In this document: piece after piece, positions 10,713 through 63,106 of the stretch
How the letters are laid out: each line of letters begins with the position of its first letter
Position numbering within the stretch: position 1 is the first letter of the stretch
DNA from: Escherichia coli
GTDB taxonomy: Bacteria; Pseudomonadota; Gammaproteobacteria; Enterobacterales; Enterobacteriaceae
Strand: one strand, 5' to 3'
NCBI RefSeq assembly: GCF_045037415.1
Contig: NZ_CP173438.1
DNA: 64,000 nt
Program-made: the position numbers and the translations under genes
The notes under the pieces: model-generated
The model's input: the letters and a program-made list of their open reading frames with translations, nothing else
Database searches by the model: none
Told to the model about the DNA's origin: nothing

Positions 10713-10861
10713 TAGTCACGCTGGCGAAGTTCGGTAGGCCGGATAAGGCGTTCACGCCACATCCGGCAATTGTGCGCCGATTGTCTGATGCTGCTCGCCG
10801 GATGCGACGCTGGCGCGTCTTATCCGGCCTACCGCGTCTTATCAGGCCTACACGTTGAAAC
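10713..10861. repeat. REP/BIME cluster (rluA-djlA spacer)
   Basis: Several gccggatgcg...cgtcttatccggcctac REP units; occupies the position where K-12 carries yabP/yabQ. Confidence 0.7.
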
Positions 10862-14337: not shown

Positions 14338-17431
<3,094 letters not shown>

Positions 17432-40011: not shown

Positions 40012-40400
40012 TTTATTTGCATATTAATTCACAATGATGACGTAAATCAATGCAAATCTGCTTACCGACGAATTTCTGGCAAACGGCGGCATTCTGGAGA
40101 TATGGGAGCTAAAAGTCAACTTAATGGCGGGATTTTTTATATTATTTTGTGGCTCATGCATGTTTTACAGGCATTAAGCGACAAAAAGATCATATAACAT
40201 GTTCTGGAAAACGCTTGCGCAGCAAGAAGATTGCATGAAATCAAAATGAGTAGAAAAAAGTGGACCAAATGGTCAAAATTTACATTAAAACAACAAAAAC
40301 AGAATACAAAACATGTAACTTTCAGCATTTGCATTAAATTTAAAAACATAACACCAAAAATAAAAGGGCCAAAAATTAAAGCCCTTTATATTCAATGAAT
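40012..40400 (-). promoter_or_regulatory. carAB upstream control region (tandem promoters; very AT-rich)
   Basis: About 400 bp AT-rich spacer upstream of carA, where the pyrimidine/arginine-regulated carAB promoters lie; individual sites not mapped here. Confidence 0.5.
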
Positions 40401-55437: not shown

Positions 55438-56703
55438 TTAAATTGTTCCATGCTCTAGTTTTTTATTCCACAGATGTTTGAGGATATCTAATGTAGAAAC
55501 GACATTCGCAGGAGACATTCGGTTCAATGATATAAGGAAAGGATGGTTCTCCACAAAGTGGATAAAACGCGTCGCACTGTTCAATGTTGCATGCCGCATC
55601 TCGCGGACTTTCTTACTGCCAGTGAGATTGCATACAGCCATTGAATAATTGCGGTTAGAAAATGCACGCCAGACATTATTTCGTACCCCACCACTAAGGA
55701 ATAATCGCGGCGGAAAATCAATGGTGGCGGGTGCCACACCGCGCTCTTTGACAAAGGAAATATGGCAGCGACCTTGATGAATATGCTGCAAATTAGCCAT
55801 CAGGCAGCCGCCCAATATAAAGCATTCGTGATCAAGGTAATGCTGAACGTTGTTGGAATGCTCATCGGTCAGTATTCTGACCAGTTCAAAATGACGATAT
55901 GCCGGAAGAACCGGTTTTACCAACATTCCCGGATCGTTTTGATGTAAAACTGCCGGGCCGTAATCAATATCAAACAAGGTATCCCGCCGCATAGTAAGTA
56001 ACTCTTTGCGCTGGACATGATGTGCCAGCGTCCCTGGAGACATACGCTCTTCATAGTTCGATGTGTATTGATAATGTTGCTCTACGGCAGATGGGGAGTA
56101 ATTGGTTGAGATGGCAACCACCCTGCCGCTTTGTTCTTCTGCGGTAACAAGAGCATAAAGAGAGTTATTGCTACCATTATACTTGACGCGAAAAGCGCGG
56201 GTACTCAGGGTAATATCAGAAGCTGGGAAACACTGTCGACTTTCTTTATAGTTTGCTTCACGCGCTAATTTTAACAGTTCACGGCTAAGTCCAGTGCTGT
56301 TAAGAAGTAATGACTTTCTGATATCCGCAAGTGCCTCCCCTTGCTCAATCATCAATGCTAACTGGGCTCCTCGTGGTGTGGTAATTACATGTTCCAGAGT
56401 GATAAATGTTTTCTCACAATGATGGCAATACATTCTTCTCTGGCCTTGTGCAGAATATCCATATTTTTTGAGGGACGTGCCTCCGCAAGTTGAACATTGG
56501 CAAATCAAACCTCTCCAGGAGTGATTCACAATATTACGATAAATATTAAGCGACTGTTCAGATATCACTGGAAACAAGTAACCACATTCACGGCATAAAA
56601 TATTTTTACCCTGTGCGACATAATCCTGGCTATTCAGCAACCCCAGGTTTTTACATCCTGGTGTTTTGCAACAATCAACATTTACGTTGGTAAACATATC
56701 CAC
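55438..56703 (-). CDS. Cys-rich 421-aa protein with N-terminal zinc-ribbon motifs (IS1 InsA-like signature), function unknown, accessory
   Basis: N-terminal 100 aa carry four Cys pairs; CQCSTCGG...YGYSAQGQRRMYCHHCEKTF closely resembles the InsA zinc finger CPSCSA...[20 protein letters not shown]. No CxxxCxxC radical-SAM motif. AT-rich gene. Confidence 0.5.
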   Translation of the reverse strand: MDMFTNVNVDCCKTPGCKNLGLLNSQDYVAQGKNILCRECGYLFPVISEQSLNIYRNIVNHSWRGLICQCSTCGGTSLKKYGYSAQGQRRMYCHHCEKTFITLEHVITTPRGAQLALMIEQGEALADIRKSLLLNSTGLSRELLKLAREANYKESRQCFPASDITLSTRAFRVKYNGSNNSLYALVTAEEQSGRVVAISTNYSPSAVEQHYQYTSNYEERMSPGTLAHHVQRKELLTMRRDTLFDIDYGPAVLHQNDPGMLVKPVLPAYRHFELVRILTDEHSNNVQHYLDHECFILGGCLMANLQHIHQGRCHISFVKERGVAPATIDFPPRLFLSGGVRNNVWRAFSNRNYSMAVCNLTGSKKVREMRHATLNSATRFIHFVENHPFLISLNRMSPANVVSTLDILKHLWNKKLEHGTI

Positions 56704-56741
56704 TCCCTGCGAATAGCCGTATCTTGATATTGTTCAACGCG

Positions 56742-56780
56742 AAAAGAACCTGATTCAATGCGTAGCACTGAATCAGGCGG
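56742..56780 (-). terminator. Putative intrinsic terminator after the sulfatase gene
   Basis: Perfect 9-bp inverted repeat cctgattca-N11-tgaatcagg followed on the minus strand by ttcttttcgc. Confidence 0.45.
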
Positions 56781-56825
56781 GCATAGCCCTAAATGGCATA
56801 CATTACATTTATTATGATTATCAGG

Positions 56826-58319
56826 TTAGCCCCAGGTCACCGCTTCTGGTTTATCACCTCTGGCTTTCATTAGAGAATCATTATCAATATCAGTTTTATA
56901 TTTTAAAAACTTACCATACATCTGTTTTTCAATATCTGGTTTTTTACCGATCAGATTAAGTGTTTCATAACGATCAGATTTCAGATTGTAGAGATATTTC
57001 GGTTTATTATTGCGATCGATAATCATCTTCCAGTCACCATCACGGATCGCCCATTCATCGGTTGGATCATCCTGGAATGGCATATCAATCCCGAAAATTA
57101 ATGGCTTTTCGCGTTTCAATGCTTTTTGCTCAAGAACAGGAACCAGCGATTCACCATCGAAAGTACGGTCTGTAGGTAATTTGAAGTTCATCATTTTCGC
57201 TAAAGTAGGCATCCAGTCCAGACCATAAACGGGTGTATCTGAAACCATTCCCTGTGGTAGATGTTTACCATATTTAATAATGGCTGGAACACGAATTCCG
57301 CCTTCCCAAAGGTTATCCTTGCGACCGCGTAATCCATCCGTTTCCCCTGCCAAATTCAGCTCATACACTTTGCGCGCTTCACGCGTTACCGGACCGTTAT
57401 CACTGGTAAAAATAACGATTGTGTTATCTTCTTCACCCACAGCTTTGATTTTATCCAGCACTTTTCCAACCTGTGCATCCAGATAGCTGATATTGGCATA
57501 ATATTCCCCCACACCACGCCAGGGTTTGTCTGCCCAGTCGCCATAAAATAAATCAGGATGCTGCTTCTGATACGCGCTCATATATTGTGAGTACATATCG
57601 AGGTATTTTTTGGGCGAAGCCAGGGGGCTATGCACTTCGGTAAAAGCAACATAGAGGAAGAAAGGCTTGCTGTCCTTTTTGTTATCCAGCCAGTTGACGA
57701 CTTCCGAACTGACATACTCACCGCTCATTTTATCGGCTCGTGGAGTGGGTTGCCCGTTACGTAGCCAGCCTGTCGGGTAAACCATGCCATAACGCGGGCG
57801 TTCTTTAGCGTTATCCAGCGTGGCGTCGGTAACAAAGCCCGCCGTATTAACCAGTGAGTAATCAAAGCCCATATCTTGTGCTTGTGGCTGATCGGTGCGA
57901 TCGCTGCCTGCATTCAGATGCAGCTTACCCATCATTGCCGTGTCGTACCCTTGCGCTTTGAGTAGATTAGCAATCGTGAGTTCGTTACGCCCTAAGGCAA
58001 CATCTTTGCCTGAAGGAATCCATGAGCGAATTCCAGTACGAAATGGCATCCGGCCGGTTAATAGCCCTGCGCGTGAAGGTGAACTTAAAGGAGCGGGGGC
58101 ATAGTAGTCAGTAAATTTGACCCCTTCCTGGGCAAGCCTGTCGATATTAGGTGTTTTAACGATCTGATGACCATATGTTGCTAAATCGCCATAACCTAAA
58201 TCATCCGCCATAATAATGACTAAATTAGGTTGTTTAGCCTCTGCGGCTAAGGCAGGACTAAAAGCATTCCCTGTGCAAACTGCAAGGCCGATCAAACTGG
58301 CCATTAACGTTTTCTGCAT
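56826..58319 (-). CDS. Periplasmic arylsulfatase-family hydrolase, Ser-type (signature SSPSRAGLLTG), accessory
   Basis: 497-aa ORF with Sec signal peptide and the sulfatase active-site signature [C/S]-x-P-x-R-x4-TG with Ser at the formylglycine position. Confidence 0.85.
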   Translation of the reverse strand: MQKTLMASLIGLAVCTGNAFSPALAAEAKQPNLVIIMADDLGYGDLATYGHQIVKTPNIDRLAQEGVKFTDYYAPAPLSSPSRAGLLTGRMPFRTGIRSWIPSGKDVALGRNELTIANLLKAQGYDTAMMGKLHLNAGSDRTDQPQAQDMGFDYSLVNTAGFVTDATLDNAKERPRYGMVYPTGWLRNGQPTPRADKMSGEYVSSEVVNWLDNKKDSKPFFLYVAFTEVHSPLASPKKYLDMYSQYMSAYQKQHPDLFYGDWADKPWRGVGEYYANISYLDAQVGKVLDKIKAVGEEDNTIVIFTSDNGPVTREARKVYELNLAGETDGLRGRKDNLWEGGIRVPAIIKYGKHLPQGMVSDTPVYGLDWMPTLAKMMNFKLPTDRTFDGESLVPVLEQKALKREKPLIFGIDMPFQDDPTDEWAIRDGDWKMIIDRNNKPKYLYNLKSDRYETLNLIGKKPDIEKQMYGKFLKYKTDIDNDSLMKARGDKPEAVTWG

Positions 58320-58339
58320 AATTATTCCCTGATAAAAAA

Positions 58340-59101
58340 TTAGAAATCATAACCAAGCATATAAATCATTTGATCGCCAAAGCCATCGTAGCCCAGCTTA
58401 TTATCGAAATAACGCCACGTCACACTGGCTTTCCAGCGAGGATAGAACTTCCAGGCAATAGTTAAACCGCCATTTAACCCGTTCCGGCCAAATTGCTGCT
58501 CCGTGTAAGCATCGTTCCTGTCCAGTTCTATTTCATTCCAGTTAGATAAAACAAATTTTTCGTCAAATAACGTAAATGGTAATACTGCTGTCCAGCCAAC
58601 AACATAACCATTCCAACCATTCGTTTGACCATATTTAGCTGATACGTAGTCACCAGATTGATTATGTAATCCAATATACGGTTTAAAAAAGCCCCACTCG
58701 CCGTTCCAGCCGAGGTAACCGAATCCATAAAACATGTCCAGATCGTCACCCCATGAGTTATCCCATTGGCCATAAATTTTGCCAAAGAATGTCATATCAG
58801 AGTCAAAGAGTCTGACATGCGTCATTACTGAAACCGTATGATTTCGCCCTGCTACAGCATGATTGAGTACATTACTTTCATAAAATGAGTAAAATTCTGC
58901 TTCTTTAAAATTTACCCCAAAATCCGCAGTCACTTTCCATACTTCACCACGGTGAGTGTTTACAAATCCACTATTCCAGTCTGCATAACCCGCATTTATT
59001 GAACCAAAGGTTCCTTTATATTCTAATGAAGAATATGCAGGAAAATGATAGATAGCTGTTATCAGGGTACACGCAATAAGAAGTCGTCTTTTGGCAGACA
59101 T
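58340..59101 (-). CDS. Outer-membrane beta-barrel channel, Tsx-like, accessory
   Basis: 253-aa ORF rich in W/Y/G/D/N with alternating beta-strand pattern and C-terminal ...MLGYDF (terminal aromatic, as in Tsx ...VVGYNF); stop lies 20 bp before the sulfatase start. Confidence 0.6.
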   Translation of the reverse strand: MSAKRRLLIACTLITAIYHFPAYSSLEYKGTFGSINAGYADWNSGFVNTHRGEVWKVTADFGVNFKEAEFYSFYESNVLNHAVAGRNHTVSVMTHVRLFDSDMTFFGKIYGQWDNSWGDDLDMFYGFGYLGWNGEWGFFKPYIGLHNQSGDYVSAKYGQTNGWNGYVVGWTAVLPFTLFDEKFVLSNWNEIELDRNDAYTEQQFGRNGLNGGLTIAWKFYPRWKASVTWRYFDNKLGYDGFGDQMIYMLGYDF

Positions 59102-59611
59102 ATAATATGTTCTCCATTCATTGTTTTTATGATTCCATAGGAATTAATACACCAGACAATTCATTTTTATTAAGAATGACCAGGCCAGTATATTTAAAGA
59201 TGACTATCGAAGCGTGATGAAGATCGCAGATTACTTTTGCGAACGGGCGGAGGGATATCGTGTTTCAGAAAATGTGTCTGTTTTAAATATCACCCTTTGA
59301 TTTATAGGCATTTTTCATGATGAACTTAGCATTGGCTGCTGAACGTATTTCTTTGTCTCTCTATAGTATTACACTAACCTTTAATAATTAATTTCCTTTA
59401 GCCATTCACTTTTGATAGAGGAAAACACCTTTTTTGTGAATCCCTGGATATATTTAAGTTAAATAAATTGATGTATTGAAATATTATTCCGCAAAAATGC
59501 GAGGCGTCTTCAGAAAAAGAATTGATAAAACAGAAGTGAATTAAAAGCGCAGTATAATAGCGGCGGGTGCTTGAGGCTGTCTGTCTCAGGCATTGGCTGA
59601 ACGGCAGATAG

Positions 59612-59666
59612 AGAAAAGCCCCGAGTGATATTTTACCATCAACCCGAGGCCCCCTATATGCAGAAC
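59612..59666 (-). ncRNA. sokC: Probable SokC antisense RNA (type I antitoxin of hokC)
   Basis: Placed by the known hok/sok architecture (antisense to the mokC start region); boundaries estimated, not confirmed from promoter or terminator signals. Confidence 0.4.
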
Positions 59667-59867
59667 ACATGTAGAGTGCCTCTTACTGACCGAAAGGTCA
59701 AGGAGAAGAGAGCAATGAAGCAGCATAAGGCGATGATTGTCGCCCTGATCGTCATCTGTATCACCGCCGTAGTGGCGGCGCTGGTAACGAGAAAAGACCT
59801 CTGTGAGGTTCACATCCGAACTGGCCAGACGGAGGTTGCTGTTTTCACGGCTTACGAATCCGAGTAA
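59658..59867 (+). CDS. mokC: MokC, translational-coupling reading frame for hokC
   Basis: MQNTCRVPLTDRKVKEKRAMKQHKAMIVAL... overlaps and is in frame with hokC, as in the known hokC locus. Confidence 0.7.
   Translation: MQNTCRVPLTDRKVKEKRAMKQHKAMIVALIVICITAVVAALVTRKDLCEVHIRTGQTEVAVFTAYESE
59715..59867 (+). CDS. hokC: HokC (Gef) type I toxin, small membrane peptide
   Basis: 50-aa MKQHKAMIVALIVICITAVVAALVTRKDLCEVHIRTGQTEVAVFTAYESE, identical to HokC/Gef as remembered. Confidence 0.9.
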   Translation: MKQHKAMIVALIVICITAVVAALVTRKDLCEVHIRTGQTEVAVFTAYESE

Positions 59868-59970
59868 GAGCAACGGCGGGGAGTGATCCCCGCCACTTTA
59901 CAGGTGCTCGCATATCTTCAACGCACCCTTTTTTTTACCTGGCCTGCCCACGGGCAGGCTTTTGGGGAGG

Positions 59971-61101
59971 TTAGCGAGTCAGGTCGTCGAAAAACTTCTT
60001 CACACCATCAAAGAAGCTCTTTGAGCGCGGGCTGTTGTGCTCGCCGGTTGGGCCACCAAAGCTTTCTTGCAGCTCTTGCAGCAGCTGTTTCTGCTTCTCG
60101 TTCAGGCCTACCGGTGTTTCGACGACAACGCGGCACAGCAAATCACCCTGTGCGCCGCCGCGGACAGACTTGACGCCTTTACCACGCATACGGAACAGCT
60201 TACCGGTCTGGGTTTCGCCAGGAACTTTCAGTTTAACGCGACCATCAAGGGTCGGCACTTCGATTTCGCCGCCCAGCGCCGCCATAGCGAAGTTGATCGG
60301 GACTTCGCAATACAGGTTGTTGCCTTCACGCTCGAAAATCGGGTGCTGTTTAACCTGAACCTGAACGTACAGGTCGCCTGCCGGTGCGCCGTGTTCGCCC
60401 GCTTCACCTTCGCCCGCAAGACGGATGCGGTCTCCAGTGTCCACCCCTGCCGGGATTTTAACGGACAGCGTTTTGCTGCGCTCAACACGACCATGACCAT
60501 GACATTTGTTGCACGGATCTTTGATCAGCGTACCGCGGCCCTGACAGTGTGGACAGGTCTGCTGCACGGCAAAGAAACCCTGGCGCATCTGCACCTGGCC
60601 AGAACCATGACAGGTCGGACAGGTCTGCGGCTGTGTACCTGGTTTTGCACCGCTACCGTGGCAAACGTCACACTCTTCCAGAGTCGGAATGCGGATCTCT
60701 TTGGTCACGCCACGTACAGCTTCTTCGAGGGTGAGCTCCATGTTATAGCGTAAATCAGCACCGCGCGCCGCACGTTGACGACCACGTCCGCCGCCAAAAA
60801 TATCGCCGAAAACGTCACCAAAAATATCGCTGAAGTCTGCGCCGCCGCCAAAACCGCCGCCGCCCATGCCGCCTTGCTCAAACGCAGCATGACCATACTG
60901 ATCGTATGCCGCACGTTTTTGCGAGTCGGTCAGAACTTCATAAGCTTCCTTGATCTCTTTAAATTTCGCCTCGGCCTCTTTGTCACCCTGGTTACGGTCC
61001 GGGTGGTATTTCATGGCCAGGCGTTTGTAGGCCTTTTTGATTTCACGCTCTTCCGCTGTTTTGGAAACGCCTAAAATCTCGTAATAATCTTGCTTAGCCA
61101 T
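59971..61101 (-). CDS. dnaJ: Chaperone DnaJ (Hsp40)
   Basis: Internal Met [40 protein letters not shown]... gives the 376-aa DnaJ with four CxxCxGxG zinc-finger repeats. Confidence 0.97.
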
Positions 61102-61189
61102 CTTTTTTGATTTGCCCCTAGATGAATGCACGGGCGGAGAGGAAATTCCCCTTCGCCCGTGTCAGTATAATTACCCGTTTATAGGGCGA

Positions 61190-63106
61190 TTATTTTTTGT
61201 CTTTGACTTCTTCAAATTCAGCGTCGACAACATCGTCATCTTTCGCGTTGTTTGCAGAAGCATCAGCACCGGCAGTCTGCTGCTGGGCATGTTGCTGCTG
61301 GGCGATTTCCATCAGTTTCTGGGAAACCTGTGCCAGTTCCTGCATTTTCGCTTCGATAGCGGCTTTGTCTTCACCTTTCAGAGCAGTTTCCAGTGCAGTC
61401 AGCGCAGACTCGATAGCAGTTTTGTCGTCAGCCGGCAGTTTGTCGCCTGCTTCTTCAACCTGCTTACGGGTGCTGTGCAGCAGATGGTCGCCCTGGTTGC
61501 GAGTCTGTACCAGCTCTTCAAACTTACGGTCAGCTTCGGCGTTAGCTTCTGCGTCGCGTACCATTTTCTGGATTTCATCTTCGTTCAGACCAGAAGAAGC
61601 CTTGATAGTGATCTTCTGCTCTTTACCGCTGTTTTTGTCTTTCGCGGAAACGTGCAGGATACCGTCAGCATCGATATCGAAGGTAACTTCGATCTGCGGC
61701 ATGCCGCGCGGTGCCGGGTTGATACCATCCAGGTTGAACTGACCCAGAGATTTGTTATCAGCCGCACGTTTACGTTCACCCTGCAGCACATGGATGGTTA
61801 CCGCAGACTGGTTGTCTTCAGCGGTAGAGAACACCTGGCTGTGCTTGGTCGGGATAGTGGTGTTTTTCGCGATCAGCGTGGTCATCACACCGCCCATGGT
61901 TTCGATACCCAGAGACAGCGGGGTAACGTCCAGCAGCAGTACGTCTTTTACGTCACCAGTCAGAACACCACCCTGAACAGCAGCACCGATGGCTACAGCT
62001 TCGTCCGGGTTAACATCTTTACGCGGCTCTTTACCAAAGAATTCAGCAACTTTCTTCTGAACCATTGGCATACGAGTCTGACCACCAACGAGGATAACGT
62101 CGTCGATATCAGATACGGACAGGCCAGCGTCCTGCAGTGCAACTTTCAGCGGCTCAATGGAACGGTTTACCAGATCTTCAACCAGGCTTTCCAGTTTCGC
62201 ACGAGTCACTTTGATGTTCATGTGTTTCGGACCGGTCGCGTCTGCAGTGATGTACGGCAGGTTAACGTCGGTCTGCTGAGCGGAAGACAGTTCGATTTTC
62301 GCTTTTTCTGCCGCTTCTTTCAGGCGCTGCATTGCCAGCGGATCGTTGCGCAGGTCAATGCCCTGATCTTTCTTGAATTCTTCAACCAGATAGTTGATCA
62401 GACGGCTGTCGAAGTCTTCACCACCCAGGTGGGTATCACCGTTGGTTGCCAGAACTTCGAAGGTTTTTTCGCCGTCAACTTCGTCGATTTCGATAATGGA
62501 AATATCGAAAGTACCACCACCCAGGTCATAAACCGCGATAGTACGGTTGCCAGTACCTTTGTCCAGACCGTAAGCCAGCGCAGCTGCGGTCGGTTCGTTG
62601 ATGATACGTTTTACTTCCAGACCAGCGATACGGCCTGCGTCTTTGGTTGCCTGACGCTGAGCATCGTTAAAGTATGCCGGTACGGTAATAACAGCTTCAG
62701 TTACCGGTTCACCCAGGTAATCTTCAGCGGTTTTCTTCATTTTTTTCAGCACTTCAGCAGAGATCTGCGGCGGTGCCATTTTCTGGCCTTTAACTTCGAC
62801 CCATGCGTCGCCGTTATCAGCAGCAATAATTTTGAACGGCATGATGGAAACATCACGCTGTACTTCTTCGTCCTGGAAGCGGCGGCCAATCAGGCGTTTA
62901 ATCGCAAACAGGGTGTTTTGCGGGTTCGTCACTGCCTGACGTTTAGCCGGCTGACCAACCAGAGTTTCACCATCCTGGGTATAGGCAATGATAGAAGGCG
63001 TGGTGCGATCGCCTTCGGCGTTCTCCAGTACACGAGGAGTGGTGCCATCCATAATCGCTACACAAGAGTTGGTAGTACCCAGGTCGATACCAATTATTTT
63101 ACCCAT
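61190..63106 (-). CDS. dnaK: Chaperone DnaK (Hsp70)
   Basis: 638-aa [46 protein letters not shown]...; matches DnaK. Confidence 0.98.

Follow-up and report, generated by a model that had tools for sequence, protein, structure and literature searches.

Does the hokC locus of this Escherichia coli chromosome retain the complete architecture of a hok/sok-type toxin-antitoxin system, and is it likely to be active? The locus adjoins dnaJ in the 64,000-nucleotide stretch of DNA analyzed here (contig NZ_CP173438.1, to be referred to as the window), in which an earlier note had pointed out that the IS186 element of K-12 is missing. The locus is very probably an uninterrupted hokC/mokC/sokC type I toxin-antitoxin system of the ancestral type, with every cis-element of the hok/sok family in place. 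The evidence in hand consists of sequence identity, the integrity of the elements, a predicted conformational switch and the frequency of this arrangement in the population. The locus is the same entity as the IS-free hokC/sokC described earlier, and is thus already known.

The complete hokC transcription unit covers positions 59565-59963 on the plus strand, and contains hokC, the in-frame mokC and the antisense sokC. The coding regions of the locus and its neighbors are as follows.

59715-59867, plus strand: hokC toxin coding sequence, 50 amino acids, with a Pfam match and the peptide of K-12 HokC
59658-59867, plus strand: mokC reading frame of 69 codons, in phase with hokC and sharing its stop codon; the counterpart of K-12 b0018
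59971-61131, minus strand: dnaJ, with its stop codon at 59971-59973; the hokC ORF is convergent with it
61190-63106, minus strand: dnaK, from the ORF listing
58340-59101, minus strand: Tsx/OmpK-like porin gene, on the other flank of hokC
56826-58319, minus strand: sulfatase gene, on the same flank as the porin gene and past it

The HokC peptide shows no differences from that of K-12, and it matches the full Pfam model PF01848 (HOK_GEF, positions 1-42) with 85.5 bits (E 1.8e-24, cut-off 22). The mokC frame is a 19-codon N-terminal extension of hokC, and its sole change relative to K-12 MokC is L2Q. Its ATG at position 59658 has its own Shine-Dalgarno (SD) sequence, GAGG, located 8 nt 5' of the ATG. 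As in the rest of the family, translation of hok would be coupled to that of mok. The earlier note had described an intact hokC ORF overlapped by mokC, followed after about 100 bp by the dnaJ stop, with two GC hairpins in between (59873-59893 and 59939-59954). This description holds: the two frames overlap in the same phase, the hokC stop (59867) and the stop codon of dnaJ are separated by 103 bp, and the hairpins are located at 59875-59894 and 59941-59960, within a few bases of the earlier positions. The order of elements 3' of hokC is hairpin 1, a 21-nt spacer, the fold-back inhibition element (fbi), a U8 run, hairpin 2, and UUUU.

The Rfam sok model (RF01794) matches end to end over positions 59565-59717, with 116 bits (gathering score 59, E 1.7e-27). 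The match falls on the hok-sense strand, so that the model in effect describes the hok leader and the Sok-target region. The 399-nt RNA (59565-59963) has a minimum free energy (MFE) of -168.5 kcal/mol, with z = -7.2 relative to shuffled sequences. With this Rfam score and this z value, the resemblance to a hokC locus is not due to chance. Elsewhere in the window, Rfam matches above the gathering score were found for three established sRNA families of E. coli, namely ES003 (40032-40084, minus strand), tpke11 in the dnaK-dnaJ intergenic region (61102-61179, minus strand), and naRNA4 (10737-10829, plus strand), and tRNA genes are absent from the window. A minus-strand match (59835-59960) to the rpsL leader of Pseudomonas was rejected, as its 19.6 bits (gathering score 70, E 0.28) reflect chance, due to the two hairpins.

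The site at which K-12 is interrupted is located in the first of the two hairpins.

59875-59894, plus strand: hairpin 1, GGCGGGGA-GUGA-UCCCCGCC, with an 8-bp stem and a GUGA loop
59941-59963, plus strand: hairpin 2 and UUUU, GGCCUGCC-CACG-GGCAGGCU, with the stem-loop at 59941-59960

There is no IS186 in the window at this site, in agreement with the earlier note, and the sequence equals that of K-12 minus IS186A and minus one target duplication. The K-12 element, which the note had placed here, is IS186A at NC_000913.3 15387-16731 (1,345 bp), starting 19 bp after the hokC stop. Its junctions are located inside hairpin 1, and GGAGTGATCCC is duplicated there. When the element and one duplicate are removed from the K-12 sequence, the resulting 399-nt unit is colinear with that of the window, and the two units have their hairpins and the sequence of fbi in common. 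Hairpin 1 of the window holds the segment GGGG-AGTGAT-CCCC (59878-59891), which is the motif for IS186 insertion, unoccupied here. The target of IS186, 5'-GGGG(N6/N7)CCCC-3', was defined in mutation-accumulation lines; the genome contains few such sites, and the element enters them in either orientation (PMC5009759). By this target-site logic the uninterrupted form is ancestral. The K-12 state is derived, the insertion of IS186 into the motif of hairpin 1 having severed fbi and the terminator from the gene. The hairpin 1 site in the window is an unoccupied hot spot for this element.

The frequency of the two states was determined with a 291-bp query spanning hokC to dnaJ (59700-59990) against 5,426 complete E. 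coli genomes. A one-piece match, indicating an uninterrupted locus, was found in 3,814 of these genomes (~70%). The match is interrupted in about 1,611 genomes (~30%), K-12 derivatives and BL21 among them, with the break at query position 191, which corresponds to position 59890 of the window, inside hairpin 1. IS186 is present at hokC in both orientations, with junctions that are 100% identical, in 829 genomes for the K-12 type and in 937 for the opposite type (as in strain TW10598). These orientation counts, from 300-nt junction queries, are approximate, as their sum of 1,766 exceeds the 1,611 interrupted genomes; the 300-nt queries replaced 100-nt ones, which were confounded by other hok-IS186 junctions, for example that of the cysH-cas3 locus. 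The uninterrupted form is therefore the majority state and no peculiarity of this strain, and the K-12 insertion is the exception. The 869-bp stretch of the window that contains the locus is 100% identical in strains such as SK1144. In the RefSeq/PGAP annotation of SK1144, the identical 50-residue hokC coding sequence is called 'mokC: type I toxin-antitoxin system toxin MokC', and neither the longer mokC frame nor sokC is included, a naming that is inconsistent with that of K-12.

The regulatory elements of the hok mRNA that surround the coding region are as follows.

59565-59576, plus strand: tac (translational activator), GGGUGCUUGAGG, which pairs with fbi in the full-length RNA
59616-59622, plus strand: ucb (upstream complementary box, anti-SD), AAGCCCC
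59646-59649, plus strand: SD sequence of mokC, GAGG, masked by ucb in the fold of the full-length RNA and part of the SD/dcb hairpin in that of the truncated RNA
59678-59682, plus strand: dcb (downstream complementary box), GCCUC, which pairs with the SD region in the truncated RNA
59916-59928, plus strand: fbi, CUUCAACGCACCC, which pairs with nucleotides 1-12 of the mRNA
59929-59936, plus strand: U8 run directly 3' of fbi, seen in the sequence and a possible alternative 3' end

In the MFE structure of the full-length 399-nt RNA, nucleotides 1-12 (tac) are paired with nucleotides 352-364 (fbi), forming 12 base pairs with one bulged C. The pair probabilities for tac/fbi in the ensemble are 0.94-1.0, and the GCCCC segment of ucb is paired with the mok SD region with probabilities of 0.97-0.99. 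A 331-nt RNA, cut just after hairpin 1, folds differently. In this RNA tac is paired with ucb (0.96-0.99) and the SD (59646-59650) is paired with dcb (59678-59682; 0.92-0.98), while the ucb/SD pairing has a probability near 0. The switch of the family, from ucb/SD to tac/ucb plus SD/dcb, is thus predicted for this RNA, each pairing having a probability of at least 0.92 in its own state and ~0 in the alternative state. In the published hok mechanism, the closed mRNA has the tac/fbi and ucb/SD pairings and the processed mRNA has tac/ucb and SD/dcb, and the processed RNA can be translated and can also be bound by Sok (PMC9841398). The switch predicted for the window matches this mechanism. The dcb element overlaps the -10 hexamer of sokC in the window, as dcb does for sok in R1 (PMC9841398).

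The specificity of the long-range pairing was assessed with a shuffle control, in which the 44-nt 3' segment was permuted in 200 trials and scored for at least 8 pairs to nucleotides 1-12. Such pairing to the 3' region was obtained in 12 of the 200 trials, so that the fold of a single sequence is only moderately specific, and the weight is placed on conservation and covariation. Seven other hok RNAs were folded independently. The tac/fbi long-range pairing was found in all seven, with compensatory changes, and in each intact hok locus the 5' end is paired with a segment located 35-37 nt from the 3' end. For hokC of O157:H7, 94EC and IS-excised K-12, tac/fbi is present in the MFE structure and fbi is identical to that of the window. 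The tac/fbi pair is GGCGCUU/AAGCGCC in R1-type hok and F flm, and GGGUGUCUG/CAGACACCC in F srnB, the latter being fully compensated relative to the hokC pair given above. The hok homologue of an IncY plasmid has CCUCAAUGCACCC at the place of fbi. In the K-12 RNA read into IS186, the tac/fbi pairing is lost, tac has no 3' partner, and tac/ucb is formed from the start. The conservation and covariation observed here reproduce what the family is already known for. The suggestion in the earlier note that the fold-back elements are intact is borne out by the comparison with K-12 and R1 and by the structure prediction.

Hairpin 1 is positionally homologous to the hairpin GGCGGGC-GCAG-GCCCGCC of R1, and a GC stem-loop follows the hok stop codon here as elsewhere in the family, in the R1, flm, srnB and IncY loci. 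The post-stop stem-loop is the protected 3' end of the processed hok mRNA (PMC9841398). By analogy, hairpin 1 would be the 3' stem-loop of a processed hokC mRNA of ~330 nt. Hairpin 2 is terminator-like and oriented for the hokC transcript. It is located only 8 bp from the dnaJ stop, however, and in K-12 it still adjoins dnaJ, beyond IS186, which could suggest that both GC hairpins simply terminate transcription of dnaJ and play no part in the regulation of hokC. This explanation is very improbable, given that the homologues of hairpin 1 follow the hok stop with no dnaJ near any of them, that the U-run after hairpin 2 is present only on the hokC strand (the dnaJ strand has CAGGUAAAAAAAA), and that the fbi element between the two hairpins is paired with the 5' end of the mRNA. 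A bidirectional dnaJ/hokC terminator was also considered for hairpin 2; with the U-run on one strand only, hairpin 2 is taken as terminator-like for hokC, and any role for dnaJ would be hypothetical. The ends of the transcripts and the antisense gene are placed as follows.

59553-59558, plus strand: -10 hexamer TATAAT of the hokC mRNA promoter, from the sequence and conserved in K-12; the -35 is poor and the promoter weak
59565-59963, plus strand: full-length hokC mRNA unit, with a length of 399 nt for a presumed 3' end at the hairpin 2 terminator
59666 to 59608, minus strand: sokC antisense RNA, 59 nt, by base-for-base transfer of the K-12 sokC annotation (16952-17010)
59673-59701, minus strand: sokC promoter, with -35 TTGACC (59701-59696), a 17-nt spacer, and -10 CACTCT (59678-59673)

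The hokC mRNA probably starts with the G at position 59565. The Rfam sok/hok-leader model has its first position at this base, and in alignment the base coincides with the 5' end of R1-type hok, GGCGCUUGAGG. The 3' end of the hokC mRNA could alternatively be located in the U8 run, which together with a local GGUGC...GCACC stem could provide an end just past fbi. This run is uninterrupted in the allele of the window, whereas K-12 and O157 have UAUUUUU and 94EC has UAAUUUU at the same place.

The SokC RNA has a single-stranded 5' tail, followed by a stem-loop and UUUUCUCU (-23.1 kcal/mol, z = -3.9). Both hexamers of the sokC promoter are the same in K-12, where sokC is an annotated ncRNA, and the promoter aligns with the R1 Sok promoter TTGCGC...TATCCT. 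On the sequence level, therefore, an antisense Sok with a promoter and a terminator stem-loop is located over the mok initiation region, as in the rest of the family. The -35 of hokC and the -10 of sokC are poor matches to the consensus. A generic sigma-70 and terminator scan of 59050-60050 missed the hokC promoter, the sokC promoter and hairpin 2; it returned only chance hits at a level below expectation, and is uninformative for weak or non-canonical signals. The sokC promoter was missed because of its weak -10, and hairpin 2 was missed by the simple terminator scan because it is followed by only 4 U.

Homology with plasmid R1 hok/sok suggests how transcripts, processing, SokC action and toxicity may be connected in this strain. 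The weak promoter (-10 at 59553) would produce a stable mRNA of ~370-400 nt, in which the 5' tac is clamped to the 3' fbi. In this closed mRNA ucb would mask the SD of mokC, and as a result the RNA would be neither translated nor bound by SokC. Slow 3' exonucleolytic trimming to hairpin 1 would remove fbi, after which tac and ucb would pair and the SD would enter the SD/dcb target hairpin. Two fates are expected for the resulting RNA of ~330 nt. The abundant but unstable antisense SokC may bind it, and the duplex would then be destroyed. In cells short of SokC, translation of mokC and of the coupled hokC would follow, giving the 50-residue inner-membrane toxin.

The closest known system is hokC/sokC of strain ECOR24, which, as far as it is described in the papers that cite it, resembles the locus in the window in its dnaJ-adjoining chromosomal site, in the absence of IS186 and in the retention of fbi. 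According to PMC3562002, the IS186 downstream of K-12 gef/hokC probably interferes with fbi and with normal processing of the mRNA; the paper also refers to the analysis of hokC/sokC from ECOR24. The ECOR24 transcript is given there as ~330 nt (citing Pedersen & Gerdes 1999, Mol Microbiol 32:1090), which fits the 331-nt species predicted to end at hairpin 1. The chromosomal hok loci tested by Pedersen & Gerdes (1999), as cited in bioRxiv 10.1101/2025.08.07.668861, were hokA of E. coli C, hokB of K-12 and hokC of ECOR24. According to the same account, the IS-free ECOR24 hokC gave no post-segregational killing and no activation by rifampicin. The function of chromosomal hokC has thus been examined in the field and, so far as these citing papers report, answered negatively. 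As a consequence of the negative ECOR24 assays, intact elements are no proof of biological activity, and the potential functionality considered in the earlier note is conjectural.

These assays raise the possibility that the locus is intact in sequence but an inert relic, kept by the youth of the lineage or by neighboring constraints, and that it never kills or arrests cells naturally. Loss of the locus is evidently tolerated: the same point is occupied by an IS in ~1,600 of the 5,426 genomes, some of which, such as TW10598, have a further IS in the leader. On the other hand, divergent phylogroups have retained the peptide, all the paired elements and both hairpins, at 93-100% identity, and fbi is invariant in the alleles inspected. 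Moreover, overexpression of HokC is toxic (bioRxiv 10.1101/2025.08.07.668861), and a chromosomal copy of R1 hok kills once Sok is removed (PMC9841398). On balance we consider an inert relic possible, though somewhat unlikely.

An opposite proposal is that IS186 is a recurrent, lineage-independent agent that disarms hok loci, and that the intact form, rather than being a relic, is kept by selection, with phage defence, persistence or anti-addiction as conceivable reasons. This proposal is suggested by the insertions at hokC in both orientations, in ~30% of E. coli genomes, together with those at the cysH-cas3 and IncY loci. The recurrence of IS186 in the 3' hairpins of hok loci is partly shown, while the selection and the function are conjecture, and we regard the proposal as a whole as doubtful. 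The conserved post-stop hairpin of hok loci happens to fit the target motif of IS186, and IS186/IS421 is also present in the equivalent hairpin of the chromosomal cysH-cas3 hok locus of strain M2 and of an IncY plasmid hok locus. In ETEC TW10598, the end of the IS21-like element ISEc62 falls within the hok leader, 80 bp before the hokC ATG, and the locus is doubly disrupted, by ISEc62 upstream and IS186/IS421 downstream.

The reading as an intact, ancestral-type locus can be compared further with the known systems. Alignment to hokC (gef)/mokC/sokC (sof) of K-12 MG1655 (b4412/b0018/b4413) is collinear, with 93.7% DNA identity, and the HokC peptide, tac, ucb, SD, dcb and the sokC hexamers are the same. 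K-12 differs in that IS186A in hairpin 1 parts fbi and hairpin 2 from the gene, that its predicted RNA is tac/ucb-paired from the outset, and that it lacks the 4.0-kb island of the window (see below). Relative to the other alleles inspected, the allele of the window is distinguished by MokC L2Q, the U8 run 3' of fbi, and a single base of the loop by dcb. The plasmid systems hok/mok/sok (parB) of R1, flm of F and srnB of F share the order of elements with the window, namely 5' tac, ucb, SD-mok, Sok target and promoter, dcb, and hok, followed on the 3' side by the post-stop GC hairpin, fbi at ~35-37 nt from the 3' end, and the terminator hairpin. On the other hand, the locus in the window is chromosomal and that of R1 is plasmid-borne; the mean column identity to the R1-type sequence is 75%, the 5' hairpin is shorter in the window, and mokC of the window is in frame with hokC. 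In contrast to R1, flm and srnB, no plasmid-stabilization role is known for the chromosomal locus, for which the published tests were negative.

The window contains the wild-type form of a textbook type I toxin-antitoxin locus, while the reference strain K-12 is atypical and IS-disrupted. Studies of chromosomal hok should use an allele like that of the window rather than that of K-12. Beyond correct annotation, the significance is small. One further site in the coding region is the following.

59853-59855, plus strand: Tyr47 codon UAC, within GCUUACGAAUCC (59850-59861), a putative context here for TadA A-to-I editing

Editing of hokC, by which TadA converts Tyr to Cys in hok genes through A-to-I editing, is described in bioRxiv 10.1101/2025.08.07.668861. 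The motif GCUUACGAAUCC is also present in R1 hok and is intact in the window.

The region upstream of the locus has a different origin. The earlier note had regarded it as very AT-rich, and positions 59102-59564 indeed have 32.6% GC, compared to 51.7% for the whole window. The note had also assigned to it the role of a promoter region shared with the neighboring sulfatase island, and this part needs qualification. Homology with K-12 is confined to 59447-59890 (K-12 17170-16728), and 59102-59446 belongs to the island itself. Where K-12 has 72 bp between the sokC side and nhaA, the window has a 4.0-kb segment (55448-59446) instead, which is present in 933 of the 5,426 complete genomes. As 59102-59446 is inside this segment, the 345 bp upstream of the porin gene came with the island, which brings its own upstream region. 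The promoter region proper of hokC is the conserved 118 bp (59447-59564).

The island encodes, all on the minus strand, the Tsx/OmpK-like porin, the sulfatase with the motif SSPSR, and a 419-residue Cys-rich protein (55438-56697), and no sulfatase-maturase gene is evident in it. The 419-residue protein is annotated as hypothetical, with no Pfam match at E≤0.001. Residues 68-99 show a borderline match to an N-terminal zinc-ribbon of the IS1/IS1595 type (NCBIfam NF050000, 28.1 bits, cut-off 28), and the protein could be transposase-derived or DNA-binding.
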